A stretch of DNA of 64,000 bases from NCBI GenBank assembly GCA_964016885.1, contig OZ024748.1:1-64000 (forward strand), given 5' to 3'. This document shows positions 4,856 to 64,000 of the stretch, one piece after another; within the stretch, counting starts at the first letter, position 1, and each line of letters opens with the position of its first letter. A program made the position numbers and the translations under genes. Source of the DNA: Eledone cirrhosa (lineage: Eukaryota). The notes under the pieces were generated by a model. The model saw nothing but the letters and a program-made list of their open reading frames with translations. It was not told where the DNA came from and searched no databases.

Positions 4856-5397
4856 CTGTGGGCTTATGTAGGGTCGGGCATCTCATAAATTCAGTATTTA
4901 CGCAGAGTAATATAGATAAAAATACATCAACGACAAACACTATAGTCTCGCATTTTAAAGGATTCGCTTTTGCAATAGAACAGGGAATCAATAAACTATC
5001 TGATTCAATAATATTTTATATTATATTGGCAGCGAACTCCAACTGCTGGGCCTGCATTCTTCTGTCTCGTCTGTTATGCTTGTACTTCATTGATTTTCAC
5101 TGCAACAATCACCAATTACTCTTGTTTATTCTCGGGGATGTCTTTTCTACCCACTGCATTCTTCACTACATCATGCAAATTTTCCACAGCTGCTCCACAG
5201 CTGTCAAATTTTCAATCTTAATTCGGCACAATTTCAACATCTTTTGCCTGCATCACACAGTATTCAGTCAATTAGTTTTTCTTCGTTTCCTATTCTTATA
5301 TTGCAAAAACATATCCATAAAAGTGCGAGATAATATAGCGAGTGTTCATAGATTTTGCTTATCTACATTATAATCACTCGACAGCTCCTTGGCAACA
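4856..5397 (-). mobile_element. Inverted-repeat element type A; copies 9191-9460 (internally deleted), 13940-14504, 19235-19740
   Basis: TIR pair in the 13940 copy: ctatattgtctcgcactttaaaggattcgcttttgcaata vs RC ctatattatctcgcacttttatggatatgtttttgcaata; interior homologous to type B. Confidence 0.6.
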
Positions 5398-9730: not shown

Positions 9731-9916
9731 TGTTTCTACTTTTGGCACAAGGCCAGCAATTAACCAGTACATTACTGGTACTTTATTTTATCCACCCCGT
9801 AAGGATGAAGGGCAAAGTTAACCTCGACGGGATTTGGACTCGGATCGTAAAGGGACGTAATTCTTTGCGTCAAAGCATGGCGTCCGACCCTCCACCGATA
9901 CTGCCAACCCACCGCC
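9731..9916 (-). mobile_element. tRNA-derived SINE with 16-17 bp TSD
   Basis: A box TGGCAGTATCGG, degenerate B box; flanked by (t)agctacaactaataat on both sides; empty site at ~704-719 in unit 1. Confidence 0.9.
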
Positions 9917-14822: not shown

Positions 14823-15008
14823 TGTTTCTACTTTTGGCACAAGGCCGGCAATAACCCAGTACATTACTGGTACTTTATTTTATCCACCCCGTAAGGATGA
14901 AAGGCAAAGTTAACCTCGGCGGGATTTGAACTCAGATCGTAAAGGGACGTAACTCTTTAAGTCAAAGCATGGCGTCCGACCCTCCACCGATACTGCCAAC
15001 CCACCGCC
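14823..15008 (-). mobile_element. tRNA-derived SINE, same insertion as 9731-9916
   Basis: Same TSD and position within the unit; B box GAGTTCAAATCCC. Confidence 0.9.
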
Positions 15009-20359: not shown

Positions 20360-23300
20360 TACACACATAATACAGACACATAATACACACATAATACACA
20401 CATATAATACACAGATAATACACACATAATACACAGATAATACACACATAATACACACATAATACACACATATAATACAGATAATACGCACAGATAATAC
20501 ACACATATACACACATATAATACACAGATAATACACACATAATACACAGATAATACACATATAATACACACATAATACACACAGATAATACAGATAATAC
20601 ACACATATAATACAGATAATACGCACAGATAATACACACATATAATACACACATATACACACATATAATACACAGATAATACACACATAATACACAGATA
20701 ATACACACATATAATACACACATATAATACAGATAATACACACATATAATACAGATAATACGCACAGATAATACACATATAATACACACATATACACACA
20801 TATAATACACAGATAATACACACATAATACACAGATAATACACACATATAATACACACATATAATACAGATAATACACACATATAATACAGATAATACGC
20901 ACAGATAATACACACATATAATACACACATATAATACACAGATAATACACACATAATACACAGATAATACACAGATAATACACACATAATACACACATAA
21001 TACACACATATAATACAGATAATACGCACAGATAATACGCACAGATAATACGCACAGATAATACACACATATACACACATATAATACACACATAATACAC
21101 AGATAATACACACATAATACACACATAATACACACATATAATACAGATAATACGCACAGATAATACACACATATACACACATATAATACACAGATAATAC
21201 ACACATAATACACACATAATACACACATATAATACAGATAATACACACATATAATACAGATAATACGCACAGATAATACACACATATACACACATATAAT
21301 ACACACATAATACACACATAATACACACATATAATACAGATAATACGCACAGATAATACGCACAGATAATACACACAGATAATACACACATATACACACA
21401 TATAATACACAGATAATACACACATAATACACAGATAATAGACACATATACACACATATAATACAGATAATACACACATATAATACAGATAATACGCACA
21501 GATAATACACACATATAATACACACATATACACACATATAATACACAGATAATACACACATAATACACAGATAATACACACATATAATACACACATAATA
21601 CACACATATAATACAGATATTACACATATAATACAGATAATACGCACAGATAATACACACATATAATACACATATACACACATATACACAGATAATACAC
21701 ACATAATACACAGATAATACACACATAATACACATATAATACAGATAATACGCACAGATAATACGCACAGATAATACACAGATAATACACACATATACAC
21801 ACATATAATACACAGATAATACACACATAATACACAGATAATACACACATATAATACACACATAATACACACATATAATACAGATAATACACACATATAA
21901 TACAGATAATACGCACAGATAATACACACATATACACACATATAATACACAGATAATACACACATAATACACAGATAATACACACATATAATACACACAT
22001 AATACACACATATAATACAGATAATACACACATATAATACAGATAATACGCACAGATAATACACACATATAATACACACATATACACACATATAATACAC
22101 AGATAATACACACATAATACACAGATAATACACACATATAATACACACATATAATACAGATAATACACACATATAATACAGATAATACGCACAGATAATA
22201 CACACATATACACACATATAATACACAGATAATACACACATAATACACAGATAATACACACATATAATACACACATATAATACAGATAATACACATATAA
22301 TACAGATAATACGCACAGATAATACACACATATACACACATAATACACAGATAATACACACATAATACACAGATAATACACACATATAATACACACATAA
22401 TACACACATATAATACAGATAATACACACATATAATACAGATAATACGCACAGATAATACACACATATAATACACAGATAATACACACATAATACACAGA
22501 TAATACACACATATAATACACACATATAATACAGATAATACACACATATAATACAGATAATACGCACAGATAATACACACATATAATACACACATATACA
22601 CACATAATACACAGATAATACACACATAATACACAGATAATACACACATAATACACAGATAATACACACATATAATACACACATATAATACAGATAATAC
22701 GCACAGATAATACACACATATACACACATATAATACACAGATAATACACACATAATACACAGATAATACACACATAATACACACATAATACACACATATA
22801 ATACAGATAATACGCACAGATAATACGCACAGATAATACACAGATAATACACACATATACACACATATAATACACAGATAATACACACATAATACACAGA
22901 TATAATACACACATATAATACACACATATAATAATACAGATAATACACACATATAATACAGATAATACGCACAGATAATACACACATATAATACACACAT
23001 ATACACACATATAATACACATATAATACACAGATAATACACACATAATACACAGATAATACACACATATAATACACACATATAATACAGATAATACACAC
23101 ATATAATACAGATAATACGCACAGATAATACACACATATAATACACACATATACACACATAATACACAGATAATACACACATAATACACAGATAATACAC
23201 ACATATAATACACACATATAATACAGATAATACGCACAGATAATACACACATATACACACATATAATACACAGATAATACACACATAATACACAGATAAT

Positions 23301-23965
23301 ACACACATAATACACACATAATACACACATATAATACAGATAATACGCACAGATAATACACAGATAATACACACATATACACACATATAATACACAGATA
23401 ATACACACATAATACACAGATATAATACACACATATAATACACACATATAATAATACAGATAATACACACATATAATACAGATAATACGCACAGATAATA
23501 CACACATATAATACACACATATACACACATATAATACACAGATAATACACACATAATACACAGATAATACACACATATAATACACACATAATACACACAT
23601 ATAATACAGATAATACACACATATAATACAGATAATACACACATATACACACAGATAATACACACATAATACACAGATAATACACACATAATACACATAT
23701 AATACAGATAATACGCACAGATAATACGCACAGATAATACACACAGATAATACACACATATACACACATATAATACACAGATAATACACAGATAATACAC
23801 ACATAATACACACATATAATACAGATAATACGCACAGATAATACACACAGATAATACACACATATACACACATATAATACACAGATAATACACACATAAT
23901 ACACACATAATACACAGATAATACACACATATAATACACACATAATACACACATATAATACACAC
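20360..23965. repeat. Modular minisatellite of 9-13 bp ATAATAC-based modules
   Basis: Modules ACAGATAATAC, ACACATAATAC, ACACATATAATAC, AGATAATAC, GCACAGATAATAC, ACACATATAC; degenerate continuation 24153-24305. Confidence 0.97.
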
Positions 23966-24152
23966 AATTGTTTCTACTTTTGGCACAAGGCCAGCAATTA
24001 TCCCAGTGCATTACTGGTCCTTTATTTTATCAACCCCGTAAGGATGAAAGGCAAAGTTAACCTCGGCGGGATTTGAACCCAGAATAGCAAGGGCCGTAAC
24101 TCTATGCGTCAAAGCATGGCGTCCGACCCTCTACCGATACTGCCAATCCACC
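23966..24152 (-). mobile_element. tRNA-derived SINE inserted in the satellite
   Basis: Homologous to 9731-9916; A and B boxes present. Confidence 0.9.
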
Positions 24153-25150: not shown

Positions 25151-25740
<590 letters not shown>

Positions 25741-26290
25741 TGTTATTCCGGGTTGAATCGGAGGTAACCACAGTAAGTAAGGTACTCAATACATAGCAGA
25801 GTATAAGTTTTAATATAGATGAGATTCTACAGGACTAGAACTGTTTCATTCATTTGAAATCATCAGGAATCTGGGTATCAAAAAATAAATATGGTATTTA
25901 TAGGTCTCTACAAGTGGTAGGAGAGGGTGGGGAGTGGGATGGGTGCAGGTCGTTGGTTGATAGAAAAGGGAATTCATTAAAAGCTAATTCTACAAAGCTA
26001 TTTTTATTTTTATTTATTATGTTTTTAGAGTAACAAGGGCAGACAGAATTCTATAAACATGTTCCGGATGGCCTACCATTCCTTGTCAATAAGTTTCTCT
26101 TAAGCTAACAGATGTCTATAAAATCAGTGGGGGGTCAGTCATAGTCGATAGAATTAAAGAAAAGGGGAGATTCTTTAAAAGCTAAAGTCATTAAGGTTCT
26201 AAGTGACAAAGGTCTAGAGAATTCTGCAGACAGATTCAAAATACTGAGTGCATATCTTACTATTATCTTCGAACTTCTCTTAAACTAATC
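25741..26290 (-). mobile_element. Penelope-like element relic with pseudo-LTR
   Basis: Contains a hammerhead; terminal ~120 bp recur at 32638-32750 and inverted at ~33340-33415. Confidence 0.55.
25822..25872 (-). ncRNA. Type I hammerhead ribozyme
   Basis: agattc CTGATGA t-ttc aaat gaa-t GAAA cag ttctagtc ctg TA gaatct; perfect stems I and III, GUA site, U.U at the base of stem II. Confidence 0.8.
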
Positions 26291-26493
26291 AACTATATGC
26301 CAAAAATCAACAGACACATTCACAAAAAAACAAAAAAACACATACTCACTCACACACTTACGCGCAACCATAAACACACACACAAACACATATACACACA
26401 TAAAAACACACACATATATATAAAAATATATAAATATATATTCATGTACACACACGTACATACAGACATACATACACACACATATATATAAAT

Positions 26494-26530
<37 letters not shown>

Positions 26531-26558
26531 AATATATATATATATAAATATATATATA

Positions 26559-26596
<38 letters not shown>

Positions 26597-27254
26597 AATT
26601 ATATATATATATATAAATTATATATATATATAAATTATATATATATAAATTATAAATTATAAATATAAATATATATATATATATATATACATATAAATAA
26701 ATATATATATACACACACGTTTCATAAGCTACTATATATATATATATATATACACATATTTAAAAAAATTGGTTGGCTGGTTTAACCTAACGTAAAAAAA
26801 TAAATAAAAAAATTCTATCCAAAAATGAGAGGTTTGTGGCAGAGAAGGAATTGAACAGGGACAAATTTTTAGGAGAATCTGGAATAAAAATAAGTTATAT
26901 ATTCTAATGGTGCATTTTATATTTTATATTCTCTAAATTACAAGTGAACAAAATTAACGTTAATCTAACTATAACGTATTACTGCTACTTTATTGGATAA
27001 ACAATACTGAGTCAGCTTTTATAAGTCTTTTGAAAACAGAGAACAGAGACAATACCAACCATGTGAATTCAACAGATTTTTCCAGATTTTTCCCCCCCCT
27101 ACATAATCTCATCAACACACATATACATATATATACATATATATCTTTCATTTTCTCCCTTAATCACTAGCAAATACCAACTCCTCCAGTTCTAAAAATA
27201 GAAAATTCTTCCAGAAAGATAGACAGAGAAAAAGCAGAGAAGAGAGGAACCCAG

Positions 27255-45289: not shown

Positions 45290-45728
45290 GTGAGATGCGC
45301 GATGCTGCATGGTAGTGAGACATGGACAGCAACTGCAGAGGGTATGCGATGGCTGGAGAGAAATGAAGCAAGCACGCTCCGTTGGATGTGCAATGTCAAT
45401 GTGCGGGAACGACCAAGCATAAACGAGTTGAGAGAGAAACTGTGTTTAAGAGGGATAAGTTGTGGTGTGCAAGAGAGGACTGAGATGGTATGGACATGTG
45501 ATGCGCATGGAGGTTGAGCGCTGGGTAAAGAAGGGAGACGCAGTAGAGGAAGACCACGAAAAACATGGGTGGAGGTGGTGAGAGCCGACTTCAGATCGCT
45601 GAAACTCACCAAGGAGATGACGAAGGACCGTGACAAGTGAAGAGATGCTTTGCTCAAGAGGACCTGTCCCACCCTTTCAAGCAGGGAAAAGCGGACGTAA
45701 AATGATGAACAGACGATGATAATGATGC
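45290..45728 (+). mobile_element. RTE family A 3' end with (TGA)n tail (in every unit)
   Basis: LHGSETWTATAEGMRWLERNEASTLRWMC, RRSRGRPRKTW. Confidence 0.92.
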
Positions 45729-45789
45729 TCTCTATATATCTATCTCTCTATCAATCTATCCAGATATCTGTGCATCAGTCTATCTATTT

Positions 45790-46045
45790 ACCTGCACTTC
45801 TCACTCCGTCTCAGGATCACCGAGACATCACCAACAACCAACCCACGCTGTGGGAAACAGTCCTCCCCGGGGCACACCCTGGTACTTCACACCATCTGTC
45901 TGTCTCGCTGCCTAACTACCGAGAAATCCGGCTTCTGTGCTTGCCTAATTTGTAGGTTATTAGGCAGTTGGCAGGTTTGCGGAAGTTGGTTTTGCAAATG
46001 GTTAAAACACTTGCATCACGAAATTCAAATAGCATCACTCCTTGT
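45790..46045 (-). mobile_element. Inverted RTE endonuclease fragment, left hairpin arm (in every unit; not in the ORF track)
   Basis: RC translates GVMLFEF.DASVLTICKTNFRKPANCLITYKLGKHRSRI..VVRQRDRQMV..PGEDCFPQRGLVVGD, aligned to 46320-46576. Confidence 0.93.
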
Positions 46046-46051
46046 TTTATC

Positions 46052-46170
46052 TTTCTCGTCTTTACCCAGGCCTGCATAAGTTAGTGTTACGGTTAGTGTT
46101 ACTGTTAGCGTTACGGCTAGTTTTAGGGTTAATTGAGAGCAAGAAACTGCTGCTAGGTAAAGACAAGAAA
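46052..46170. mobile_element. ~120-bp MITE-like insert: 18-bp inverted repeats around degenerate TTAGGG-like hexamers (in every unit)
   Basis: tttctcgtctttacc(c/t)ag / ctaggtaaagacaagaaa; ttagtg ttacgg ttagtg ttactg ttagcg ttacgg ctagtt ttaggg. Confidence 0.75.
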
Positions 46171-46214
46171 TTCTGCATTTACAAGCAATTTTTACAAACA
46201 GCCACAATGACAGG

Positions 46215-47195
46215 ACGGAGACATCGTTATGCTAGCAGGGGATTTCAATGGTCATGTTGGACAGCTCTACGATGGTTACACCGAGGTACATGTTGGGCAC
46301 ACTTACGGCTTAAGAAATGAAGCAGTGAAACTTCTTGAATTTTGCGATGCAATTGCACTAACCATCTACAACACTAACTTACACAAATCTGCCAACCACC
46401 TAATAACCTACAAATCAGGCAAGCACATAAGCCAGATTGACTTCTTGCTAGTTAGGCAGCGGGACACGCAGATGGTGTCAAATACAAAGGCATACCCCGG
46501 GGAAGAATGTACCCCACAGCATAGGTTAGTCGTTAGTGATATCTCATTAAGCAAGAGACTGAATGAGACATACAGGAAGGTGTGGAAAAAAGAAAGGTCT
46601 GGAAGCTAAAAGAGCTCTCACTAAAATACAAATTTAGGAAAGCCCTTCAATATGTGTATGATGAAAAAGAAGACGATTTAGAGTCGTACAACATAGATGA
46701 TAACTGGAATTTCTTATGCGATACCTTACTGCAGGTTACTGATGAAACTTGTGGCTGGATCAGAGTTCCAACCAGACAGAGAGTGACATGGTGGTGGGAC
46801 AGCACGGTAGATCGGGCCATTGGAGACTAAAGACTAGCATGGAATGCTTGCAAAATTAGTGCGAGTAGAGAAGAATATACAGCCGCTAAGAGAGAAGCTA
46901 GACGTCAGGTGTACTTAGCATGCAAGGAGGCTGCTCGACGACGTGCGCTGTTCCGTACTGCAAGGCAGTGTGTCAGTGAAAATCGGGATTAAGTCTGCCC
47001 GCAATGATGCCGCTGTACTTTGTGTCACGAATGAGTGTTGATGAGTAGAAAAGAGGACAAAACTCTATTCCGTCAGGGAAATGGCCATGTTCGATATGCA
47101 GAAACGGAACTGGCATAAATTATATAAAACGTACACAAAAGATCGAGTGCGATAGCAGGCACGTAGTGGGATAGCAGGCAAACTAACAGCATATT
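46215..47195 (+). mobile_element. RTE family A endonuclease + linker + Cys-finger fragments (in every unit)
   Basis: AGDFNGHVG, LITYKSG..SQIDFLLV, PGEECTPQHRLVV, KVWKLKE, TWWWD, GKWPCSICR. Confidence 0.93.
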
Positions 47196-47239
47196 TTGAT
47201 TATAATAAAACAAATAATAATAGTAATAATAATAATAAT

Positions 47240-47903
47240 AATCGTCATTGTTCTTTTCTTCTGTGCCTTTCTTTGCCTTCTCTGTCATCTGAATAACAAA
47301 AATAAAAGAAAAAAGAATCTTAAACATATGTTGCCTTTACAAAGTGCTGTGATCAAAGTAGCTTTTAAGCAATTTCCTAACTAACAAACAACATCAACAA
47401 AATATATACAAATATCTCTGAATGTCAAGTCCACCAAGAGAAAATAGTCATAATGTACTTACAGATACAATGCTAGGGACTCGCATCAATGAGTTTTAGT
47501 AGAAAATGACTGACTGACTGTTGAGGGACAGAGGTGTGTTTTCAAATATTTATCAATTCACAACAAAGCCTCACAAAGCTACATCATAATGCAAACTCAC
47601 AACACCCTTCTTATGCAACCTCACCAAGCAACCCCACAACACAACCTCACGTTCACAATTCACAACACTCAACAAGGCATTCGTTATCTAGGGTTTACAG
47701 TAAACATAGCGAGGTAAAACACACCCAGTACACTCTGTAAAGTGGTCATTAGGTTAAGATTAAACTGAAATCATACCTCCATTGTCGTTGGCGTGTATTT
47801 TCTCTAAAACTTAATTTCATTGCTTTCATTTCTCTTCTTTTTCTTCTATTCCATCTAAATATGAAAAAAAATTATACAGGTCATTTCGTCTTATCAAGAG
47901 GTC

Positions 47904-47935
<32 letters not shown>

Positions 47936-48022
47936 CCGAGATAATACCTTAAAATAATGGTAAAAAAAGTGTTTAATTACGAAAATCCTTTGAAATAACT
48001 TCCTCGCTCTTACTGGTCATAC
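47240..48022 (-). other. Candidate spliced gene fragment in each unit: exons 48022-48014 (9 nt), 47854-47777 (78 nt), 47517-47463 (55 nt), 47288-?
   Basis: CTAAC branch + gttttgtgttttgcAG; donors GTAAGA, GTATGA, GTAAGT; acceptors ttttttcatatttAG, cctctgtccctcaacAG, ttttatttttgttattcAG. Confidence 0.6.
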
Positions 48023-48050
48023 CTGCAAAACACAAAACACTAGCGTTAGA

Positions 48051-48545
48051 GTGAAATTACCCTCAGTAGATCAGACAGAGGGACCAGCTATTGAGATTAA
48101 CGAATATAGGGTCCAAGAGGCGATTAAGGAAATGAAAAATGGTGAGGCTGCTGGACCATCGGAGATAGTTGCTGAGATGCTGAAGGCCTCAGGGGACGTA
48201 GGCACTAAACTGGTTGCACACATCATCAATCAGGCTATATATGGCAGTGTCATACCCAAAGACTAGTGCAAAAGTAAAGGGGACGCTCTTGAGAGGAGAA
48301 ATTATAGGGATATAAAACTGATGGATCAGGTTATGAAAGTGGCAGAAAGGATATTAGCACAACTAATTAGAGAAAGGGTCAAACTAGATGAGATGCAGTT
48401 TGGTTTTGTGCCTGGGAATAGTACAACAGATGCCCTCTTCTTGATGAGACAATTACAAGAGAGGTTCTTAGAGAAAAATAAGCCACTATACTTAGCCTTT
48501 GTTGACCTAGAGAAGGCCTTTGATAGGGTACGCCGATCTGTCATC
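48051..48545 (+). mobile_element. RTE family A RT fragment (in every unit)
   Basis: EAIKEMKNGEAAGPSEIVAEMLK, MQFGFVPG, RQLQERFLEKNKPLYLAFVDLEKAFDRV. Confidence 0.95.
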
Positions 48546-51391
48546 TTATTATTTAACCTATAAATGGGGCCCCAACAGGTACTACTACACCAGGCCAGAG
48601 CAGACCTGGGAGTTATGACAACTAAGGGGGTAACTCCACGTTCCCCACAGTTCCTTCTGAACTTGAGCCTTGCCACTGGATGTAGTTTAATGTCATACCC
48701 AGGACAAATATATACATACATATATATATATGCATACACACATATATATATATATACATATATACAAATATATATATGCGTACGAAAGTGTGGTTACATG
48801 ATGCCTATGCGAGATGTGCGACGCTGCATGGTAGTGAGACATGGACAGCAACTGCAGAGGGTATGCGATGGCTGGAGAGAAATGAAGCAAGCACGCTCCG
48901 TTGGATGTGCAATGTCAATGTGCGGGAACGACCAAGCATAAACGAGTTGAGAGAGAAACTGTGTTTAAGAGGGATAAGTTGTGGTGTGCAAGAGAGGACT
49001 GAGATGGTATGGACATGTGATGCGCATGGAGGTTGAGCGCTGGGTAAAGAAGGGAGACGCAGTAGAGGAAGACCACGAAAAACATGGGTGGAGGTGGTGA
49101 GAGCCGACTTCAGATCGCTGAAACTCACCAAGGAGATGACGAAGGACCGTGACAAGTGAAGAGATGCTTTGCTCAAGAGGACCTGTCCCACCCTTTCAAG
49201 CAGGGAAAAGCGGACGTAAAATGATGAACAGACGATGATAATGATGCTCTCTATATATCTATCTCTCTATCAATCTATCCAGATATCTGTGCATCAGTCT
49301 ATCTATTTACCTACACTTCTCACTCCGTCTCAGGATCACCGAGACATCACCAACAACCAACCCACGCTGTGGGAAACAGTCCTCCCCGGGGCACACCCTG
49401 GTACTTCACACCATCTGTCTGTCTCGCTGCCTAACTACCGAGAAATCCGGCTTCTGTGCTTGCCTAATTCGTAGGTTATTAGGCAGTTGGCAGGTTTGCG
49501 GAAGTTGGTTTTGCAAATGGTTAAAACACTTGCATCACAAAATTCAAATAGCATCACTCCTTGTTTTATCTTTCTCGTCTTTACCTAGGCCTGCATAAGT
49601 TAGTGTTACGGTTAGTGTTACTGTTAGCGTTACGGCTAGTTTTAGGGTTAATTGAGAGCAAGAAACTGCTGCTAGGTAAAGACAAGAAATTCTGCATTTA
49701 CAAGCAATTTTTACAAACAGCCACAATGACAGGACGGAGACATCGTTATGCTAGCAGGGGATTTCAATGGTCATGTTGGACAGCTCTACGATGGTTACAC
49801 CGAGGTACGTGTTGGGCACACTTACGGCTTAAGAAATGAAGCAGTGAAACTTCTTGAATTTTGCGATGCAATTGCACTAACCATCTACAACACTAACTTA
49901 CACAAATCTGCCAACCACCTAATAACCTACAAATCAGGCAAGCACATAAGCCAGATTGACTTCTTGCTAGTGAGGCAGCGGGACAGGCAGATGGTGTCAA
50001 ATACAAAGGCATACCCCGGGGAAGAATGTACCCCAAGCAAGAGACTGAATGAGACATACAGGAAGGTGTGGAAAAAAGAAAGGTCTGGAAGCTAAAAGAG
50101 CTCTCACTAAAATACAAATTTAGGAAAGCCCTTCAATATGTGTATGATGAAAAAGAAGACGATTTAGAGTCGTACAACATAGATGATAACTGGAATTTCT
50201 TATGCGATACCTTACTGCAGGTTACTGATGAAACTTGTGGCTGGATCAGAGTTCCAACCAGACAGAGAGTGACATGGTGGTGGGACAGCACGGTAGATCG
50301 GGCCATTGGAGACTAAAGACTAGCATGGAATGCTTGCAAAATTAGTGCGAGTAGAGAAGAATATACAGCTGCTAAGAGAGAAGCTAGACGTCAGGTGTAC
50401 TTAGCATGCAAGGAGGCTGCTCGACGACGTGCGCTGTTCCGTACTGCGAGGCAGTGTGTCAGTGCAAATCGGGATTAAGTCTGTCCGCAATGATGCCGCT
50501 GTACTTTGTGTCACGAATGAGTGTTGATGAGTAGAAAAGAGGACAAAACTCTATTCCGTCAGGGAAATGGCCATGTTCGATATGCAGAAACGGAACTGGC
50601 ATAAATTATATAAAACGTACACAAAAGATCGAGTGCGATAGCAGGCACGTAGTGGGATAGCAGGCAAACTAACAGCATATTTTGATTATAATAAAACAAA
50701 TAATAATAGTAATAATAATAATAATAATCGTCATTGTTCTTTTCTTCTGTGCCTTTCTTTGCCTTCTCTGTCATCTGAATAACAAAAATAAAAGAAAAAA
50801 GAATCTTAAACATATGTTGCCTTTACAAAGTGCTGTGATCAAAGTAGCTTTTAAGCAATTTCCTAACTAACAAACAACATCAACAAAATATATACAAATA
50901 TCTTTGAATGTCAAGTCCACCAAGAGAAAATAGTCATAATGTACTTACAGATACAATGCTAGGGACTCGCATCAATGAGTTTTAGTAGAAAATGACTGAC
51001 TGACTGTTGAGGGACAGAGGTGTGTTTTCAAATATTTATCAATTCACAACAAAGCCTCACAAAGCTACATCATAATGCAAACTCACAACACCCTTCTTAT
51101 GCAACCTCACCAAGCAACCCCACAACACAACCTCACGTTCACAATTCACAACACTCAACAAGGCATTCGTTATCTAGGGTTTACAGTAAACATAGCGAGG
51201 TAAGACACACCCAGTACACTCTGTAAAGTGGTCATTAGGTTAAGATTAAACTGAAATCATACCTCCATTGTCGTTGGCGTATATTTTCTCTAAAACTTAA
51301 TTTCATTGCTTTCATTTCTCTTCTTTTTCTTCTATTCCATCTAAATATGAAAAAAAAATTATACAGGTCATTTCGTCTTATCAAGAGGTCC

Positions 51392-51430
<39 letters not shown>

Positions 51431-54400
51431 GAGATAATACCTTAAAATAATGGTAAAAAAAGTGTTTAATTACGAAAATCCTTTGAAATAACTTCCTCGC
51501 TCTTACTGGTCATACCTGCAAAACACAAAACACTAGCGTTAGCGTGAACAGTGCAGTGCAGTGGAGTGCAGTGCAGTGCAGTGTAATTTAGTATGGTGCA
51601 GTTTAGTGGCACAGTACACTGTAAAACATTTAGCCAATCTCTCAGACATTTACAAATCTTTCAAGATATATATATATATATGGGAGAGAGAGAAATTACC
51701 CTCAGTAGATCAGACAGAGGGACCAGCTATTGAGATTAACGAATATAGGGTCCAAGAGGCGATTAAGGAAATGAAAAATGGTGAGGCTGCTGGACCATCG
51801 GAGATAGTTGCTGAGATGCTGAAGGCCTCAGGGGACGTAGGCACTAAACTGGTTGCACACATCATCAATCAGGCTATATATGGCAGTGTCATACCCAAAG
51901 ACTAGTGCAAAAGTAAAGGGGACGCTCTTGAGAGGAGAAATTATAGGGATATAAAACTGATGGATCAGGTTATGAAAGTGGCAGAAAGGATATTAGCACA
52001 ACTAATTAGAGAAAGGGTCAAACTAGATGAGATGCAGTTTGGTTTTGTGCCTGGGAATAGTACAACAGATGCCCTCTTCTTGATGAGACAATTACAAGAG
52101 AGGTTCTTAGAGAAAAATAAGCCACTATACTTAGCCTTTGTTGACCTAGAGAAGGCCTTTGATAGGGTACGCCGATCTGTCATCTTATTATTTAACCTAT
52201 AAAAGGGGCCCCAACAGGTACTACTACACCAGGCCAGAGCAGACCTGGGAGTTATGACAACTAAGGGGGTAACTCCACGTTCCCCACAGTTCCTTCTGAA
52301 CTTGAGCCTTGCCACTGGATGTAGTTTAATGTCATACCCAGGACAAATATATACATACATATATATATATGCATACACACATATATATATATATACATAT
52401 ATACAAATATATATATGCGTACGAAAGTGTGGTTACATGATGCCTATGCGAGATGTGCGACGCTGCATGGTAGTGAGACATGGACAGCAACTGCAGAGGG
52501 TATGCGATGGCTGGAGAGAAATGAAGCAAGCACGCTCCGTTGGATGTGCAATGTCAATGTGCGGGAACGACCAAGCATAAACGAGTTGAGAGAGAAACTG
52601 TGTTTAAGAGGGATAAGTTGTGGTGTGCAAGAGAGGACTGAGATGGTATGGACATGTGATGCGCATGGAGGTTGAGCGCTGGGTAAAGAAGGGAGACGCA
52701 GTAGAGGAAGACCACGAAAAACATGGGTGGAGGTGGTGAGAGCCGACTTCAGATCGCTGAAACTCACCAAGGAGATGACGAAGGACCGTGACAAGTGAAG
52801 AGATGCTTTGCTCAAGAGGACCTGTCCCACCCTTTCAAGCAGGGAAAAGCGGACGTAAAATGATGAACAGACGATGATAATGATGCTCTCTATATATCTA
52901 TCTCTCTATCAATCTATCCAGATATCTGTGCATCAGTCTATCTATTTACCTACACTTCTCACTCCGTCTCAGGATCACCGAGACATCACCAACAACCAAC
53001 CCACGCTGTGGGAAACAGTCCTCCCCGGGGCACACCCTGGTACTTCACACCATCTGTCTGTCTCGCTGCCTAACTACCGAGAAATCCGGCTTCTGTGCTT
53101 GCCTAATTCGTAGGTTATTAGGCAGTTGGCAGGTTTGCGGAAGTTGGTTTTGCAAATGGTTAAAACACTTGCATCACAAAATTCAAATAGCATCACTCCT
53201 TGTTTTATCTTTCTCGTCTTTACCTAGGCCTGCATAAGTTAGTGTTACGGTTAGTGTTACTGTTAGCGTTACGGCTAGTTTTAGGGTTAATTGAGAGCAA
53301 GAAACTGCTGCTAGGTAAAGACAAGAAATTCTGCATTTACAAGCAATTTTTACAAACAGCCACAATGACAGGACGGAGACATCGTTATGCTAGCAGGGGA
53401 TTTCAATGGTCATGTTGGACAGCTCTACGATGGTTACACCGAGGTACGTGTTGGGCACACTTACGGCTTAAGAAATGAAGCAGTGAAACTTCTTGAATTT
53501 TGCGATGCAATTGCACTAACCATCTACAACACTAACTTACACAAATCTGCCAACCACCTAATAACCTACAAATCAGGCAAGCACATAAGCCAGATTGACT
53601 TCTTGCTAGTGAGGCAGCGGGACAGGCAGATGGTGTCAAATACAAAGGCATACCCCGGGGAAGAATGTACCCCAAGCAAGAGACTGAATGAGACATACAG
53701 GAAGGTGTGGAAAAAAGAAAGGTCTGGAAGCTAAAAGAGCTCTCACTAAAATACAAATTTAGGAAAGCCCTTCAATATGTGTATGATGAAAAAGAAGACG
53801 ATTTAGAGTCGTACAACATAGATGATAACTGGAATTTCTTATGCGATACCTTACTGCAGGTTACTGATGAAACTTGTGGCTGGATCAGAGTTCCAACCAG
53901 ACAGAGAGTGACATGGTGGTGGGACAGCACAGTAGATCGGGCCATTGGAGACTAAAGACTAGCATGGAATGCTTGCAAAATTAGTGCGAGTAGAGAAGAA
54001 TATACAGCTGCTAAGAGAGAAGCTAGACGTCAGGTGTACTTAGCATGCAAGGTGGCTGCTCGACGACGTGCGCTGTTCCGTACTGCGAGGCAGTGTGTCA
54101 GTGCAAATCGGGATTAAGTCTGTCCGCAATGATGCCGCTGTACTTTGTGTCACGAATGAGTGTTGATGAGTAGAAAAGAGGACAAAACTCTATTCCGTCA
54201 GGGAAATGGCCATGTTCGATATGCAGAAACGGAACTGGCATAAATTATATAAAACGTACACAAAAGATCGAGTGCGATAGCAGGCACGTAGTGGGATAGC
54301 AGGCAAACTAACAGCATATTTTGATTATAATAAAACAAATAATAATAGTAATAATAATAATAATAATCGTCATTGTTCTTTTCTTCTGTGCCTTTCTTTG

Positions 54401-55032
54401 CCTTCTCTGTCATCTGAATAACAAAAATAAAAGAAAAAAAGAATCTTAAACATATGTTGCCTTTACAAAGTGCTGTGATCAAAGTAGCTTTTAAGCAATT
54501 TCCTAACTAACAAACAACATCAACAAAATATATACAAATATCTTTGAATGTCAAGTCCACCAAGAGAAAATAGTCATAATGTACTTACAGATACAATGCT
54601 AGGGACTCGCATCAATGAGTTTTAGTAGAAAATGACTGACTGACTGTTGAGGGGACAGAGGTGTGTTTTCAAATATTTATCAATTCACAACAAAGCCTCA
54701 CAAAGCTACATCATAATGCAAACTCACAACACCCTTCTTATGCAACCTCACCAAGCAACCCCACAACACAACCTCACGTTCACAATTCACAACACTCAAC
54801 AAGGCATTCGTTATCTAGGGTTTACAGTAAACATAGCGAGGTAAGACACACCCAGTACACTCTGTAAAGTGGTCATTAGGTTAAGATTAAACTGAAATCA
54901 TACCTCCATTGTCGTTGGCGTATATTTTCTGTAAAACTTAATTTCATTGCTTTCATTTCTCTTCTTTTTCTTCTATTCCATCTAAATATGAAAAAAAAAT
55001 TATACAGGTCATTTCGTCTTATCAAGAGGTCC

Positions 55033-55071
<39 letters not shown>

Positions 55072-58000
55072 GAGATAATACCTTAAAATAATGGTAAAAA
55101 AAGTGTTTAATTACGAAAATCCTTTGAAATAACTTCCTCGCTCTTACTGGTCATACCTGCAAAACACAAAACACTAGCGTTAGCGTGAACAGTGCAGTGC
55201 AGTGGAGTGCAGTGCAGTGCAGTGTAATTTAGTATGGTGCAGTTTAGTGGCACAGTACACTGTAAAACATTTAGCCAATCTCTCAGACATTTACAAATCT
55301 TTCAAGATATATATATATATATGGGAGAGAGAGAAATTACCCTCAGTAGATCAGACAGAGGGACCAGCTATTGAGATTAACGAATATAGGGTCCAAGAGG
55401 CGATTAAGGAAATGAAAAATGGTGAGGCTGCTGGACCATCGGAGATAGTTGCTGAGATGCTGAAGGCCTCAGGGGACGTAGGCACTAAACTGGTTGCACA
55501 CATCATCAATCAGGCTATATATGGCAGTGTCATACCCAAAGACTAGTGCAAAAGTAAAGGGGACGCTCTTGAGAGGAGAAATTATAGGGATATAAAACTG
55601 ATGGATCAGGTTATGAAAGTGGCAGAAAGGATATTAGCACAACTAATTAGAGAAAGGGTCAAACTAGATGAGATGCAGTTTGGTTTTGTGCCTGGGAATA
55701 GTACAACAGATGCCCTCTTCTTGATGAGACAATTACAAGAGAGGTTCTTAGAGAAAAATAAGCCACTATACTTAGCCTTTGTTGACCTAGAGAAGGCCTT
55801 TGATAGGGTACGCCGATCTGTCATCTTATTATTTAACCTATAAATGGGGCCCCAACAGGTACTACTACACCAGGCCAGAGCAGACCTGGGAGTTATGACA
55901 ACTAAGGGGGTAACTCCACGTTCCCCACAGTTCCTTCTGAACTTGAGCCTTGCCACTGGATGTAGTTTAATGTCATACCCAGGACAAATATATACATACA
56001 TATATATATATGCATACACACATATATATATATATACATATATACAAATATATATATGCGTACGAAAGTGTGGTTACATGATGCCTATGCGAGATGTGCG
56101 ACGCTGCATGGTAGTGAGACATGGACAGCAACTGCAGAGGGTATGCGATGGCTGGAGAGAAATGAAGCAAGCACGCTCCGTTGGATGTGCAATGTCAATG
56201 TGCGGGAACGACCAAGCATAAACGAGTTGAGAGAGAAACTGTGTTTAAGAGGGATAAGTCGTGGTGTGCAAGAGAGGACTGAGATGGTATGGACATGTGA
56301 TGCGCATGGAGGTTGAGCGCTGGGTAAAGAAGGGAGACGCAGTAGAGGAAGACCACGAAAAACATGGGTGGAGGTGGTGAGAGCCGACTTCAGATCGCTG
56401 AAACTCACCAAGGAGATGACGAAGGACCGTGACAAGTGAAGAGATGCTTTGCTCAAGAGGACCTGTCCCACCCTTTCAAGCAGGGAAAAGCGGACGTAAA
56501 ATGATGAACAGACGATGATAATGATGCTCTCTATATATCTATCTCTCTATCAATCTATCCAGATATCTGTGCATCAGTCTATCTATTTACCTACACTTCT
56601 CACTCCGTCTCAGGATCACCGAGACATCACCAACAACCAACCCACGCTGTGGGAAACAGTCCTCCCCGGGGCACACCCTGGTACTTCACACCATCTGTCT
56701 GTCTCGCTGCCTAACTACCGAGAAATCCGGCTTCTGTGCTTGCCTAATTCGTAGGTTATTAGGCAGTTGGCAGGTTTGCGGAAGTTGGTTTTGCAAATGG
56801 TTAAAACACTTGCATCACAAAATTCAAATAGCATCACTCCTTGTTTTATCTTTCTCGTCTTTACCTAGGCCTGCATAAGTTAGTGTTACGGTTAGTGTTA
56901 CTGTTAGCGTTACGGCTAGTTTTAGGGTTAATTGAGAGCAAGAAACTGCTGCTAGGTAAAGACAAGAAATTCTGCATTTACAAGCAATTTTTACAAACAG
57001 CCACAATGACAGGACGGAGACATCGTTATGCTAGCAGGGGATTTCAATGGTCATGTTGGACAGCTCTACGATGGTTACACCGAGGTACGTGTTGGGCACA
57101 CTTACGGCTTAAGAAATGAAGCAGTGAAACTTCTTGAATTTTGCGATGCAATTGCACTAACCATCTACAACACTAACTTACACAAATCTGCCAACCACCT
57201 AATAACCTACAAATCAGGCAAGCACATAAGCCAGATTGACTTCTTGCTAGTGAGGCAGCGGGACAGGCAGATGGTGTCAAATACAAAGGCATACCCCGGG
57301 GAAGAATGTACCCCAAGCAAGAGACTGAATGAGACATACAGGAAGGTGTGGAAAAAAGAAAGGTCTGGAAGCTAAAAGAGCTCTCACTAAAATACAAATT
57401 TAGGAAAGCCCTTCAATATGTGTATGATGAAAAAGAAGACGATTTAGAGTCGTACAACATAGATGATAACTGGAATTTCTTATGCGATACCTTACTGCAG
57501 GTTACTGATGAAACTTGTGGCTGGATCAGAGTTCCAACCAGACAGAGAGTGACATGGTGGTGGGACAGCACGGTAGATCGGGCCATTGGAGACTAAAGAC
57601 TAGCATGGAATGCTTGCAAAATTAGTGCGAGTAGAGAAGAATATACAGCCGCTAAGAGAGAAGCTAGACGTCAGGTGTACTTAGCATGCAAGGAGGCTGC
57701 TCGACGACGTGCGCTGTTCCGTACTGCGAGGCAGTGTGTCAGTGCAAATCGGGATTAAGTCTGTCCGCAATGATGCCGCTGTACTTTGTGTCACGAATGA
57801 GTGTTGATGAGTAGAAAAGAGGACAAAACTCTATTCCGTCAGGGAAATGGCCATGTTCGATATGCAGAAACGGAACTGGCATAAATTATATAAAACGTAC
57901 ACAAAAGATCGAGTGCGATAGCAGGCACGTAGTGGGATAGCAGGCAAACTAACAGCATATTTTGATTATAATAAAACAAATAATAATAGTAATAATAATA

Positions 58001-58673
58001 ATAATAATCGTCATTGTTCTTTTCTTCTGTGCCTTTCTTTGCCTTCTCTGTCATCTGAATAACAAAAATAAAAGAAAAAAAGAATCTTAAACATATGTTG
58101 CCTTTACAAAGTGCTGTGATCAAAGTAGCTTTTAAGCAATTTCCTAACTAACAAACAACATCAACAAAATATATACAAATATCTTTGAATGTCAAGTCCA
58201 CCAAGAGAAAATAGTCATAATGTACTTACAGATACAATGCTAGGGACTCGCATCAATGAGTTTTAGTAGAAAATGACTGACTGACTGTTGAGGGGACAGA
58301 GGTGTGTTTTCAAATATTTATCAATTCACAACAAAGCCTCACAAAGCTACATCATAATGCAAACTCACAACACCCTTCTTATGCAACCTCACCAAGCAAC
58401 CCCACAACACAACCTCACGTTCACAATTCACAACACTCAACAAGGCATTCGTTATCTAGGGTTTACAGTAAACATAGCGAGGTAAGACACACCCAGTACA
58501 CTCTGTAAAGTGGTCATTAGGTTAAGATTAAACTGAAATCATACCTCCATTGTCGTTGGCGTATATTTTCTCTAAAACTTAATTTCATTGCTTTCATTTC
58601 TCTTCTTTTTCTTCTATTCCATCTAAATATGAAAAAAAAATTATACAGGTCATTTCGTCTTATCAAGAGGTCC

Positions 58674-58704
<31 letters not shown>

Positions 58705-61700
58705 CCGAGATAATACCTTAAAATAATGGTAAAAAAAGTGTTTAATTACGAAAATCCTTTGAAATAACTTCCTCGCTCTTACTGGTCATACCTGCAAAAC
58801 ACAAAACACTAGCGTTAGCGTGAACAGTGCAGTGCAGTGGAGTGCAGTGCAGTGCAGTGTAATTTAGTATGGTGCAGTTTAGTGGCACAGTACACTGTAA
58901 AACATTTAGCCAATCTCTCAGACATTTACAAATCTTTCAAGATATATATATATATATGGGAGAGAGAGAAATTACCCTCAGTAGATCAGACAGAGGGACC
59001 AGCTATTGAGATTAACGAATATAGGGTCCAAGAGGCGATTAAGGAAATGAAAAATGGTGAGGCTGCTGGACCATCGGAGATAGTTGCTGAGATGCTGAAG
59101 GCCTCAGGGGACGTAGGCACTAAACTGGTTGCACACATCATCAATCAGGCTATATATGGCAGTGTCATACCCAAAGACTAGTGCAAAAGTAAAGGGGACG
59201 CTCTTGAGAGGAGAAATTATAGGGATATAAAACTGATGGATCAGGTTATGAAAGTGGCAGAAAGGATATTAGCACAACTAATTAGAGAAAGGGTCAAACT
59301 AGATGAGATGCAGTTTGGTTTTGTGCCTGGGAATAGTACAACAGATGCCCTCTTCTTGATGAGACAATTACAAGAGAGGTTCTTAGAGAAAAATAAGCCA
59401 CTATACTTAGCCTTTGTTGACCTAGAGAAGGCCTTTGATAGGGTACGCCGATCTGTCATCTTATTATTTAACCTATAAATGGGGCCCCAACAGGTACTAC
59501 TACACCAGGCCAGAGCAGACCTGGGAGTTATGACAACTAAGGGGGTAACTCCACGTTCCCCACAGTTCCTTCTGAACTTGAGCCTTGCCACTGGATGTAG
59601 TTTAATGTCATACCCAGGACAAATATATACATACATATATATATATGCATACACACATATATATATATATACATATATACAAATATATATATGCGTACGA
59701 AAGTGTGGTTACATGATGCCTATGCGAGATGTGCGACGCTGCATGGTAGTGAGACATGGACAGCAACTGCAGAGGGTATGCGATGGCTGGAGAGAAATGA
59801 AGCAAGCACGCTCCGTTGGATGTGCAATGTCAATGTGCGGGAACGACCAAGCATAAACGAGTTGAGAGAGAAACTGTGTTTAAGAGGGATAAGTTGTGGT
59901 GTGCAAGAGAGGACTGAGATGGTATGGACATGTGATGCGCATGGAGGTTGAGCGCTGGGTAAAGAAGGGAGACGCAGTAGAGGAAGACCACGAAAAACAT
60001 GGGTGGAGGTGGTGAGAGCCGACTTCAGATCGCTGAAACTCACCAAGGAGATGACGAAGGACCGTGACAAGTGAAGAGATGCTTTGCTCAAGAGGACCTG
60101 TCCCACCCTTTCAAGCAGGGAAAAGCGGACGTAAAATGATGAACAGACGATGATAATGATGCTCTCTATATATCTATCTCTCTATCAATCTATCCAGATA
60201 TCTGTGCATCAGTCTATCTATTTACCTACACTTCTCACTCCGTCTCAGGATCACCGAGACATCACCAACAACCAACCCACGCTGTGGGAAACAGTCCTCC
60301 CCGGGGCACACCCTGGTACTTCACACCATCTGTCTGTCTCGCTGCCTAACTACCGAGAAATCCGGCTTCTGTGCTTGCCTAATTCGTAGGTTATTAGGCA
60401 GTTGGCAGGTTTGCGGAAGTTGGTTTTGCAAATGGTTAAAACACTTGCATCACAAAATTCAAATAGCATCACTCCTTGTTTTATCTTTCTCGTCTTTACC
60501 TAGGCCTGCATAAGTTAGTGTTACGGTTAGTGTTACTGTTAGCGTTACGGCTAGTTTTAGGGTTAATTGAGAGCAAGAAACTGCTGCTAGGTAAAGACAA
60601 GAAATTCTGCATTTACAAGCAATTTTTACAAACAGCCACAATGACAGGACGGAGACATCGTTATGCTAGCAGGGGATTTCAATGGTCATGTTGGACAGCT
60701 CTACGATGGTTACACCGAGGTACGTGTTGGGCACACTTACGGCTTAAGAAATGAAGCAGTGAAACTTCTTGAATTTTGCGATGCAATTGCACTAACCATC
60801 TACAACACTAACTTACACAAATCTGCCAACCACCTAATAACCTACAAATCAGGCAAGCACATAAGCCAGATTGACTTCTTGCTAGTGAGGCAGCGGGACA
60901 GGCAGATGGTGTCAAATACAAAGGCATACCCCGGGGAAGAATGTACCCCAAGCAAGAGACTGAATGAGACATACAGGAAGGTGTGGAAAAAAGAAAGGTC
61001 TGGAAGCTAAAAGAGCTCTCACTAAAATACAAATTTAGGAAAGCCCTTCAATATGTGTATGATGAAAAAGAAGACGATTTAGAGTCGTACAACATAGATG
61101 ATAACTGGAATTTCTTATGCGATACCTTACTGCAGGTTACTGATGAAACTTGTGGCTGGATCAGAGTTCCAACCAGACAGAGAGTGACATGGTGGTGGGA
61201 CAGCACAGTAGATCGGGCCATTGGAGACTAAAGACTAGCATGGAATGCTTGCAAAATTAGTGCGAGTAGAGAAGAATATACAGCTGCTAAGAGAGAAGCT
61301 AGACGTCAGGTGTACTTAGCATGCAAGGAGGCTGCTCGACGACGTGCGCTGTTCCGTACTGCGAGGCAGTGTGTCAGTGCAAATCGGGATTAAGTCTGTC
61401 CGCAATGATGCCGCTGTACTTTGTGTCACGAATGAGTGTTGATGAGTAGAAAAGAGGACAAAACTCTATTCCGTCAGGGAAATGGCCATGTTCGATATGC
61501 AGAAACGGAACTGGCATAAATTATATAAAACGTACACAAAAGATCGAGTGCGATAGCAGGCACGTAGTGGGATAGCAGGCAAACTAACAGCATATTTTGA
61601 TTATAATAAAACAAATAATAATAGTAATAATAATAATAATAATCGTCATTGTTCTTTTCTTCTGTGCCTTTCTTTGCCTTCTCTGTCATCTGAATAACAA

Positions 61701-62306
61701 AAATAAAAGAAAAAAGAATCTTAAACATATGTTGCCTTTACAAAGTGCTGTGATCAAAGTAGCTTTTAAGCAATTTCCTAACTAACAAACAACATCAACA
61801 AAATATATACAAATATCTTTGAATGTCAAGTCCACCAAGAGAAAATAGTCATAATGTACTTACAGATACAATGCTAGGGACTCGCATCAATGAGTTTTAG
61901 TAGAAAATGACTGACTGACTGTTGAGGGACAGAGGTGTGTTTTCAAATATTTATCAATTCACAACAAAGCCTCACAAAGCTACATCATAATGCAAACTCA
62001 CAACACCCTTCTTATGCAACCTCACCAAGCAACCCCACAACACAACCTCACGTTCACAATTCACAACACTCAACAAGGCATTCGTTATCTAGGGTTTACA
62101 GTAAACATAGCGAGGTAAGACACACCCAGTACACTCTGTAAAGTGGTCATTAGGTTAAGATTAAACTGAAATCATACCTCCATTGTCGTTGGCGTATATT
62201 TTCTCTAAAACTTAATTTCATTGCTTTCATTTCTCTTCTTTTTCTTCTATTCCATCTAAATATGAAAAAAAAATTATACAGGTCATTTCGTCTTATCAAG
62301 AGCTCC

Positions 62307-62337
<31 letters not shown>

Positions 62338-64000
62338 CCGAGATAATACCTTAAAATAATGGTAAAAAAAGTGTTTAATTACGAAAATCCTTTGAAATAA
62401 CTTCCTCGCTCTTACTGGTCATACCTGCAAAACACAAAACACTAGCGTTAGCGTGAACAGTGCAGTGCAGTGGAGTGCAGTGCAGTGCAGTGTAATTTAG
62501 TATGGTGCAGTTTAGTGGCACAGTACACTGTAAAACATTTAGCCAATCTCTCAGACATTTACAAATCTTTCAAGATATATATATATATATGGGAGAGAGA
62601 GAAATTACCCTCAGTAGATCAGACAGAGGGACCAGCTATTGAGATTAACGAATATAGGGTCCAAGAGGCGATTAAGGAAATGAAAAATGGTGAGGCTGCT
62701 GGACCATCGGAGATAGTTGCTGAGATGCTGAAGGCCTCAGGGGACGTAGGCACTAAACTGGTTGCACACATCATCAATCAGGCTATATATGGCAGTGTCA
62801 TACCCAAAGACTAGTGCAAAAGTAAAGGGGACGCTCTTGAGAGGAGAAATTATAGGGATATAAAACTGATGGATCAGGTTATGAAAGTGGCAGAAAGGAT
62901 ATTAGCACAACTAATTAGAGAAAGGGTCAAACTAGATGAGATGCAGTTTGGTTTTGTGCCTGGGAATAGTACAACAGATGCCCTCTTCTTGATGAGACAA
63001 TTACAAGAGAGGTTCTTAGAGAAAAATAAGCCACTATACTTAGCCTTTGTTGACCTAGAGAAGGCCTTTGATAGGGTACGCCGATCTGTCATCTTATTAT
63101 TTAACCTATAAATGGGGCCCCAACAGGTACTACTACACCAGGCCAGAGCAGACCTGGGAGTTATGACAACTAAGGGGGTAACTCCACGTTCCCCACAGTT
63201 CCTTCTGAACTTGAGCCTTGCCACTGGATGTAGTTTAATGTCATACCCAGGACAAATATATACATACATATATATATATGCATACACACATATATATATA
63301 TATACATATATACAAATATATATATGCGTACGAAAGTGTGGTTACATGATGCCTATGCGAGATGTGCGACGCTGCATGGTAGTGAGACATGGACAGCAAC
63401 TGCAGAGGGTATGCGATGGCTGGAGAGAAATGAAGCAAGCACGCTCCGTTGGATGTGCAATGTCAATGTGCGGGAACGACCAAGCATAAACGAGTTGAGA
63501 GAGAAACTGTGTTTAAGAGGGATAAGTTGTGGTGTGCAAGAGAGGACTGAGATGGTATGGACATGTGATGCGCATGGAGGTTGAGCGCTGGGTAAAGAAG
63601 GGAGACGCAGTAGAGGAAGACCACGAAAAACATGGGTGGAGGTGGTGAGAGCCGACTTCAGATCGCTGAAACTCACCAAGGAGATGACGAAGGACCGTGA
63701 CAAGTGAAGAGATGCTTTGCTCAAGAGGACCTGTCCCACCCTTTCAAGCAGGGAAAAGCGGACGTAAAATGATGAACAGACGATGATAATGATGCTCTCT
63801 ATATATCTATCTCTCTATCAATCTATCCAGATATCTGTGCATCAGTCTATCTATTTACCTACACTTCTCACTCCGTCTCAGGATCACCGAGACATCACCA
63901 ACAACCAACCCACGCTGTGGGAAACAGTCCTCCCCGGGGCACACCCTGGTACTTCACACCATCTGTCTGTCTCGCTGCCTAACTACCGAGAAATCCGGCT

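Follow-up and report, generated by a model that had tools for sequence, protein, structure and literature searches.

The stretch of DNA analyzed here (the window) is the first 64 kb of contig C8 (60.6 Mb) in the 3.0-Gb assembly of Eledone cirrhosa, and its later part is occupied by a tandem array whose ~3.64-kb unit is built on a broken retrotransposon of the RTE type, a long interspersed nuclear element (LINE). Tandem Repeats Finder handles periods of up to 500, which places the array outside its range, and self-BLAST was used instead. Self-comparison of the window located head-to-tail unit starts at 45292, 48811, 52450, 56091, 59726 and 63359, and inclusion of the next 100 kb extended the array to 45292-95621, giving about 14 units: an edge unit, 12 full units and one partial last unit. 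Unit periods range from 3633 to 3641 bp and identity within the array from 99.7 to 99.9%, with the 12 full units matching the reference unit (48811-52449) at 99.70-99.86%. The young 3.64-kb array described in the initial annotation was therefore confirmed, and the head-to-tail repetition of a kilobase-sized unit makes it a macrosatellite. Alignment of five complete units revealed 212 differing columns, nearly all of which separate the first unit from the others. This edge unit is diverged (~99.1% identity to the other units), with a 33-bp insertion at the position matching 50035, a 139-bp deletion matching 51549-51686 and rare letters that were also seen in X4, a sequencing run discussed below.

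In order to resolve the anatomy of the unit, the four open frames of a nearly complete RTE located 8 kb past the array were used as protein probes. All RTE protein matches in the unit lie on the plus strand, except for a 33-residue endonuclease match at 49468-49566, and together they span endonuclease, linker and reverse transcriptase (RT), which identifies the unit as derived from a transposable element (TE). Pfam RVT_1 was matched at 51906-52199 (E 3e-10) and a weak Pfam endonuclease match was obtained at 49730-50092. Apart from two inserts, the unit is colinear with dispersed RTE copies, so that it consists of a 5'-truncated RTE in three blocks (Table 1); the 440-bp spacer between successive RTE copies contains the inverted endonuclease fragment. 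Dispersed RTE copies (L070, L091) connect unit position 1609 straight to 2870, and contigs from runs of two other species (X5, X6), which hold most of the unit nearly unchanged, carry the same joint (50419->51680). The intervening 1.26 kb is for this reason an insertion in the RTE. The order of elements proposed initially for the minus strand holds, with the RTE pieces on the plus strand and a single inverted endonuclease fragment. No Pfam family exceeded the threshold in the minus-strand frames of the unit, where a sub-threshold DUF4014 match (E 0.0075) was taken as chance, and Rfam gave 0 matches across the window. Comparison with the protein atlas returned generic RVT_1 clusters alone. The RTE proteins are closest to unnamed ENA proteins, and the nearest named ones are from crab and mollusc at 42-48% identity. 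The CpG observed/expected ratio is 0.58. Microsatellites within the unit explain most of the length differences from unit to unit.

Table 1. Features of the array within the window; unit features are given for the reference unit unless marked as belonging to the edge unit.
Feature	Position	Strand	Details
Edge unit, telomere side	45292-48810		3519 bp; from self-comparison and unit alignment
Edge-unit fold-back, two arms	45822-46043 and 46320-46545		226 bp, 78% identity
Remainder of array in the window	48811-64000		four complete units (3633-3641 bp each) and 642 bp of the next
RTE RT C-terminal part and element 3' end	48811-49228	+	RT_C 4-120 matched at 48854-49183
Fold-back arm A, inverted RTE endonuclease fragment	49341-49562	-	RTE-sense when read on the minus strand; ~80% identity with dispersed RTE copies
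5'-truncated RTE, endonuclease C-terminal part and linker	49672-50419	+	contains arm B (49839-50064)
Insertion in RTE	50420-51679		1.26 kb; contains the putatively spliced interval and the small candidate exon
Microsatellite, (ATT)n-like run	50683-50741
Interval missing from one X4 contig only	50775-51262	-	GT..AG ends; edge-unit equivalent 47289-47776
Candidate exon	51263-51340	-	78 nt; between the two X4-only missing intervals; edge-unit equivalent 47777-47854
Second X4-only missing interval	51341-51495	-	canonical acceptor (T run and TTTAG), donor GA
Microsatellite, T run of variable length	51386-51437		candidate intron-1 spacing 141-155 bp among units
RTE RT N-terminal part	51680-52185	+	Pfam RVT_1
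Second insert and microsatellite	52186-52449		directly after the RT N-terminal part
Microsatellite, TA/CA-rich run	52341-52450

Copies of the unit were counted as exact words in the assembly, with every reversed control giving 0 hits. A 39-mer from fold-back arm A occurs 262 times, a 38-mer from arm B 151 times, a 39-mer typical of the bulk of the units 155 times and a 33-mer within the putatively spliced interval 102 times. Estimation of copy number from contig depth was abandoned, as the rough calibrations were mutually inconsistent. The unit is present at least 262 times on 19 contigs (C1-C14, C18, C19, C21, C58 and C1499), in arrays or as single units, and the family comprises about twenty arrays. 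A 381-bp piece of the unit that is not TE-derived has 100% identical copies in arrays at two places on C5 and in those on C6, C7, C8, C9 and C12. The single amplified locus envisaged in the initial annotation was thus not borne out: an apparently single amplified locus, viewed through a single window, may turn out to belong to a family of arrays spread over the genome, and copy number and function therefore need to be tested differently. A literature search of limited extent on exactly this repeat family found nothing specific.

Nine of the arrays are terminal, lying 45-105 kb from contig ends. The unit is on the plus strand at the starts of C8, C9, C10, C13 and C19 and on the minus strand at the ends of C5, C6, C13 and C18, so its orientation relative to the contig end is identical in all nine. 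Telomere repeats were looked for at seven of the nine ends and were present at six of them (C9, C6, C10, the C13 start, C19 and the C5 end), taking the form (CCCTAA)n at contig starts and (TTAGGG)n at contig ends. The seventh checked end, the C8 start, showed no telomere repeat; the contig begins there inside an older tandem array. C8 1-124 kb aligns colinearly at 97-99% with the initial 100 kb of C9 and the terminal 100 kb of C6, in a shared block of more than 100 kb that runs from the older array through an 11-bp microsatellite and the young array, and on C9 the colinearity with C8 extends at least 27 kb past the array. Copies at several ends, adjoining telomere repeats and embedded in common flanking DNA, characterize the family as a subtelomeric repeat. 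Array identity is 98.6-98.9% between contigs versus 99.7-99.9% within an array. As judged from these alignments, the pattern is typical of a subtelomere block that has been copied between chromosome ends and homogenized within each array.

The regular placement of the terminal arrays also bears on a possible function at chromosome ends, where the arrays and a telomere-directed RNA could, for example, form a heterochromatin boundary, take part in controlling telomere length or serve as partners in recombination. The distance and orientation fixed in nine of nine terminal arrays, a direction of transcription that would head toward the telomere and the near-identity of the unit in contigs of two other species all speak for such a role. 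However, copying of the whole block means that fixed position and orientation need no function, and the unit also occurs in internal arrays on C7 (65.7 Mb), C11 (32.8 and 35.2 Mb), C12 (43.4 Mb) and C21 (13.8 and 14.0 Mb). Moreover, the C7 start has a telomere, but none of the listed array-word matches lies near it. We consider a chromosome-end function improbable.

Evidence on transcription came from four same-species runs that contain the unit, of which X1-X3 share one sample while X4 derives from a second. A search of sequencing runs listed none holding the unit as RNA; the kind of all four runs is unrecorded, and the contigs made from them do not reveal the strand, ends or level of an RNA. 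The joint 50774->51263, which removes the larger of two intervals in the 1.26-kb insertion, has a depth of 262.5 in X4 and 0 in X1, X2 and X3. Depth in X4 is 333-390 over 49199-50682 and 264 at 51839-51979, versus 75.3 over 50747-51230 inside the interval, while X1-X3 depth is flat on array-specific contigs at ~2770-3850. Read on the minus strand, the interval starts with the donor GGAG/GTATGA and ends with a T-rich tract of 24 nt and the acceptor TTCAG/ATGA. None of 40 assembled units on nine contigs lacks the interval, and its donor and acceptor motifs are identical in all 40. A spliced minus-strand RNA is therefore likely, to the extent that splice motifs and contig depth can indicate one, and X4 is probably an RNA run. 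Even if X4 were DNA, the precise loss of a GT..AG interval points to a minus-strand RNA spliced in the past. A second joint seen only in X4, 51340->51496, was at first read as a second intron, a reading made doubtful by the donor GA in 31 of 31 assembled units, although the acceptor is canonical. The splice-site polarity claimed for the minus strand stands for one GT..AG junction in one run.

The letters of the X4 contigs indicate which units this RNA would come from. The contigs carry 49313G, 49586C, 49809A, 50448A, 50465A and 50484C and extend into the 33-bp insert at 50035, whereas X1-X3 depth is 0 for 50465A and 50484C. A 39-mer that includes 50465A and 50484C has 6 copies in the assembly, compared with 155 for the bulk version. 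The six units of this rare type are the C8 edge unit, the first unit of the array at the C13 start, two units on C14 and two on C19; four of them match X4 at all six sites and two at five of the six. The 139-bp deletion is absent from five of the six, as it is from X4. On C8 and C13, the rare-type units are placed at the array edge facing the flank. A-to-I editing of a minus-strand RNA was considered for the X4-only T>C differences at 49586 and 50484 and rejected, as the same letters are found in the DNA of rare-type units. For the arm A core of the rare unit type, no matching contig was found in X4. Since its letters belong to a type with 6 copies versus 155 of the bulk, X4 is not proportional to genomic DNA, and it looks like RNA from a few units of a boundary type. 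The same match to the rare boundary type rather than to the amplified bulk leaves an amplified dosage unsupported, and the output of an amplified locus that was originally postulated was not seen.

The unit contains an inverted repeat. In the reference unit, 49366-49562 pairs with 49839-50038 over 201 bp at 78% identity around a 276-nt loop, and a comparable fold-back is present in the edge unit (Table 1). The long fold-back with a sense arm that had been reported from the sequence exists as an inverted repeat, but it is shorter and poorer than that description implied (201-226 bp at 78%). The predicted minus-strand fold has an energy of -342.9 kcal/mol (z -13.2) and the plus-strand fold of -302.1 kcal/mol (z -12.0), so that the hairpin forms on both strands, with the minus strand favored by 41 kcal/mol. 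Mismatches between the arms are polarized in the direction first noted, which proved real. The reference unit has 24 mismatches compatible with G:U pairing on the minus strand and 5 on the plus strand, besides 22 that pair on neither strand and 12 gap columns; the respective numbers in the edge unit are 25, 6, 14 and 4. About half of the fold-back mismatches break pairing regardless of strand.

To assign these differences to one arm or the other, mismatches were polarized with 24 loci sharing a word of both arms, one of which (L067) is a variant array unit. Derived changes numbered 26 in arm A and 9 in arm B, with 3 ambiguous and 1 in which both arms differ, and the wobble bias accordingly belongs to one arm. 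Transitions in arm A, given for the minus (RTE-sense) strand, are A>G 9 and C>T 7 versus T>C 2 and G>A 0, while the other RTE parts of the unit show the same genomic-strand bias weakly (24 versus 15). All 23 truly dispersed RTE copies are nearer to arm B than to arm A, with identities in 20 of the 23 of 0.87-0.92 for arm B versus 0.78-0.84 for arm A. For the bias of arm A, as polarized with no outgroup to the RTE subfamilies, possible causes are selection for pairing, an editing or mutation bias acting on the fragment, and a subfamily difference.

The initial annotation also stated that nearly all RTE fragments in both arrays are antisense to the minus strand. The counts hold, with 10 plus-strand and 0 minus-strand matches in the old array and 84 versus 14 in the young array, where the 14 represent the inverted arm. 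However, the counts in both arrays are copies of about three independent insertions, which accounts for the one-strand orientation, and beyond the array the bias is reversed (26 minus versus 11 plus). The nearly complete RTE that supplied the protein probes (C8 103905-106967, L004-L005) lies on the minus strand, opposite in orientation to the RTE pieces of the array, with open frames of 217, 338, 147 and 123 residues.

These features were initially combined into a model in which the locus is a source of small RNAs against RTE: minus-strand precursors would be processed into PIWI-interacting RNAs (piRNAs), or a diced fold-back would yield small interfering RNAs (siRNAs), or both, with amplification increasing the dose. 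With one exception, the RTE pieces are indeed antisense to the minus strand, on which the X4 splice junction, the more stable hairpin and the G:U-compatible mismatches also fall. Arm B is 87-92% identical to most of the dispersed RTE copies sampled, so products of the hairpin could find targets and the arms are homologous to the element they would target, as is expected of a hairpin RNA (hpRNA). In the DNA-like runs the abundance of the RTE family far exceeds that of the array, and a copy with long open frames lies close by. Precedents exist in Drosophila, namely tandem hpRNA clusters and LINE-derived hairpin arms (PMC10317233) and subtelomeric satellite-like repeats that act as strong piRNA clusters (PMC6043984). 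On the other side, the RNA-like run displays the unit type with 6 copies and not that with at least 155, the TE orientation reflects about three events and is reversed beyond the array, and the wobble bias resides in one arm. The hairpin itself, with arms 78% identical, 22 non-pairing mismatches and 12 gap columns, contrasts with the Drosophila hairpins that lose RNA-seq signal, which are described as near-perfect (PMC10317233). We regard this model as unlikely. Slightly less probable again is its extension to the whole family, according to which the chromosome-end arrays would together, across the genome, produce small RNAs from one strand against an abundant RTE, with telomere-directed precursors and G:U-tolerant hairpins giving rise to piRNAs, siRNAs or both. 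If true, this would represent a defense resembling the telomere-associated sequences (TAS) or tandem hpRNA loci of Drosophila, outside Drosophila and copied to many ends together with the subtelomere; small RNAs, if found, would link subtelomere duplication to LINE defense in a non-model animal.

The explanation that we favor, with a confidence somewhat above even, is that the family is a LINE-derived subtelomeric macrosatellite that has probably spread among chromosome ends and in which production of a spliced, non-coding RNA from the minus strand is likely for the rare boundary units only. The array likely originated by tandem duplication of a 3.6-kb piece carrying the broken RTE, and would have grown by unequal exchange and spread between subtelomeres by ectopic recombination or break-induced copying. 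Boundary units, if X4 is taken as RNA, would be transcribed toward the telomere and spliced, and the fold-back and the one-strand RTE orientation would be by-products of how the unit was assembled. As predicted from the unit, an RNA from boundary units would contain RTE sequence in antisense together with an imperfectly paired 220-bp hairpin, and could still be an input to a small-RNA pathway. If correct, this explanation provides a well-resolved case of a broken LINE becoming a macrosatellite, of copying between chromosome ends in fixed orientation and of RNA from boundary units that escape silencing. It is useful for the study of subtelomere evolution and for assembly annotation, and is not surprising.

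Several observations weigh against a subtelomeric macrosatellite with transcribed boundary units. The arm A changes (on the minus strand, 16 A>G or C>T versus 2 T>C or G>A) are not accounted for by a purely neutral history, and the near-unchanged unit in X5 and X6 could reflect constraint, or merely recent common descent. The junction is carried by one contig, on which its shorter side has 28+2 letters, and the second X4-only joint has its GA donor. The library kind of X4 is not on record. The ratio of its depth to that of X1 is nearly constant, at ~0.115 on bulk contigs and ~0.13 at the variant joints that X1-X3 carry as well, which is what DNA sequenced at low coverage would produce. The RNA evidence would fall away if X4 came from the DNA of a divergent animal. 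The corresponding alternative is a silent neutral satellite, with X4 as low-coverage DNA of such an animal, its arrays carrying other variants and two deletions, one of them with GT..AG ends by chance; the near-equal depth ratios, the non-canonical donor and the unrecorded kind of X4 are all in its favor. Nevertheless, all units of that animal would need to have the letters that are seen here in 6 versus 155 units, and these letters are lacking in the contigs of the two other species. Additionally, GT..AG ends in either orientation are expected in ~1/128 of random deletions, and here they are accompanied by the 24-nt T-rich tract and the GGAG/GTATGA donor. A silent satellite is rated a poor prospect.

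Among known systems, the family belongs with TE-derived satellites and with kilobase-unit subtelomeric macrosatellites, into which it fits. Satellites derived from TEs, including from parts of LINEs, are well described (PMC12628747), and the resemblance to the cases covered there is that a part of a TE, here a LINE, has become tandem and subtelomeric with scrambled TE relics in its unit. The present unit differs in being long (3.64 kb), in holding endonuclease and RT coding remnants together with non-TE inserts, and in traveling within a subtelomere block of more than 100 kb. The D4Z4 macrosatellite of human subtelomeric 4q35 has a 3.3-kb unit and, like the present family, a kilobase-sized subtelomeric unit at more than one chromosome end (PMC4803325, PMC4278900). 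D4Z4 contains a homeobox gene, whereas the unit described here is RTE-made and has no convincing open frame on the transcribed strand. A stable transcript of D4Z4 is known only from its last unit, which adjoins the flank, a parallel to the putatively transcribed boundary units of the present arrays.

The best precedent for a chromosome-end array that might act as a small-RNA source is TAS, the subtelomeric satellite-like piRNA clusters of Drosophila (PMC6043984). TAS likewise are satellite-like tandem repeats by the telomeres of several arms and are transcribed; they are, however, dual-strand and Rhino-bound with demonstrated small RNAs, whereas the RNA evidence here concerns one strand. The telomeres also differ, being TTAGGG repeats here and retrotransposon arrays in Drosophila. 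For the hpRNA clusters, PMC10317233 gives 20 tandem copies for hp-CG4068, 13 hairpins in ~27 kb for hp-tHMG and arms derived from the BS2/Jockey LINE for hp-ODox2. Shared with these, on the same account, are an inverted repeat in each tandem unit, LINE-homologous arms and, at some loci, a spliced primary transcript. Dcr-2-dependent siRNAs define the hpRNA loci, several of which have near-perfect arms (same source), whereas the arms here are 78% identical. For both TAS and the hpRNA clusters, only a resemblance is suggested. In uni-strand piRNA clusters of the flamenco type, TE remnants lie antisense to transcription in a spliced, Pol II-type precursor, and this is the feature to which the present arrays were likened. 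Flamenco, however, holds many independent insertions of many families, while the array repeats about two insertions of one family. As for RNA of the telomeric repeat-containing (TERRA) type, the minus strand here does point to the telomere, but the array is at least 45 kb from the telomere repeats.

The remaining subtelomere of C8 contains further repeats. The older tandem array occupies 1-19700, beginning at contig base 1, with a period of ~5 kb and 89-96% identity; each of its units carries an RTE linker/RT piece on the plus strand, and on C9 and C6 this array adjoins the telomere repeats. It is followed at 20358-23966 by the 11-bp microsatellite AATACACACAT (~315 copies, 78% matches) and then by (TA)n runs at 25151-25741 and 26482-26752, a block that is conserved in the C6 subtelomere. 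Another tandem arrangement, with units of ~5.9-10 kb, lies at C8 124000-164000 (L007-L010) and contains open frames of another reverse-transcriptase element together with minus-strand RTE endonuclease pieces; it is also found at 94-100 kb of C9.

Placement of the unit varies on other contigs. On C1-C4, the largest contigs (379-443 Mb), it lies 0.8-17 Mb from the ends, compared with 45-105 kb on smaller contigs (35-135 Mb), and no telomere repeats were seen in the first 600 bases of C1-C4. C1499 (1.1 Mb) starts with TTAGGG (95 in 600 bases; L139), while other starts have CCCTAA, and carries an array 54-91 kb inside; its start may be an inverted assembly or an internal block of telomere repeats. 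The two C21 arrays (13.80-13.82 and 14.01-14.02 Mb) have opposite orientations ~200 kb apart and could give complementary RNAs if both were transcribed.

Finally, three further joints (48960->50293, 49786->50046 and 51525->51628, the last two containing 6 and 1 filler letters, respectively) have X1-X3 depths equal to or above that of the bulk unit and were found in none of the assembled loci examined. The related variant unit L067, on C1, is without arm B, and there may be a second unit type, partly without arm B, that is under-sampled or under-assembled.

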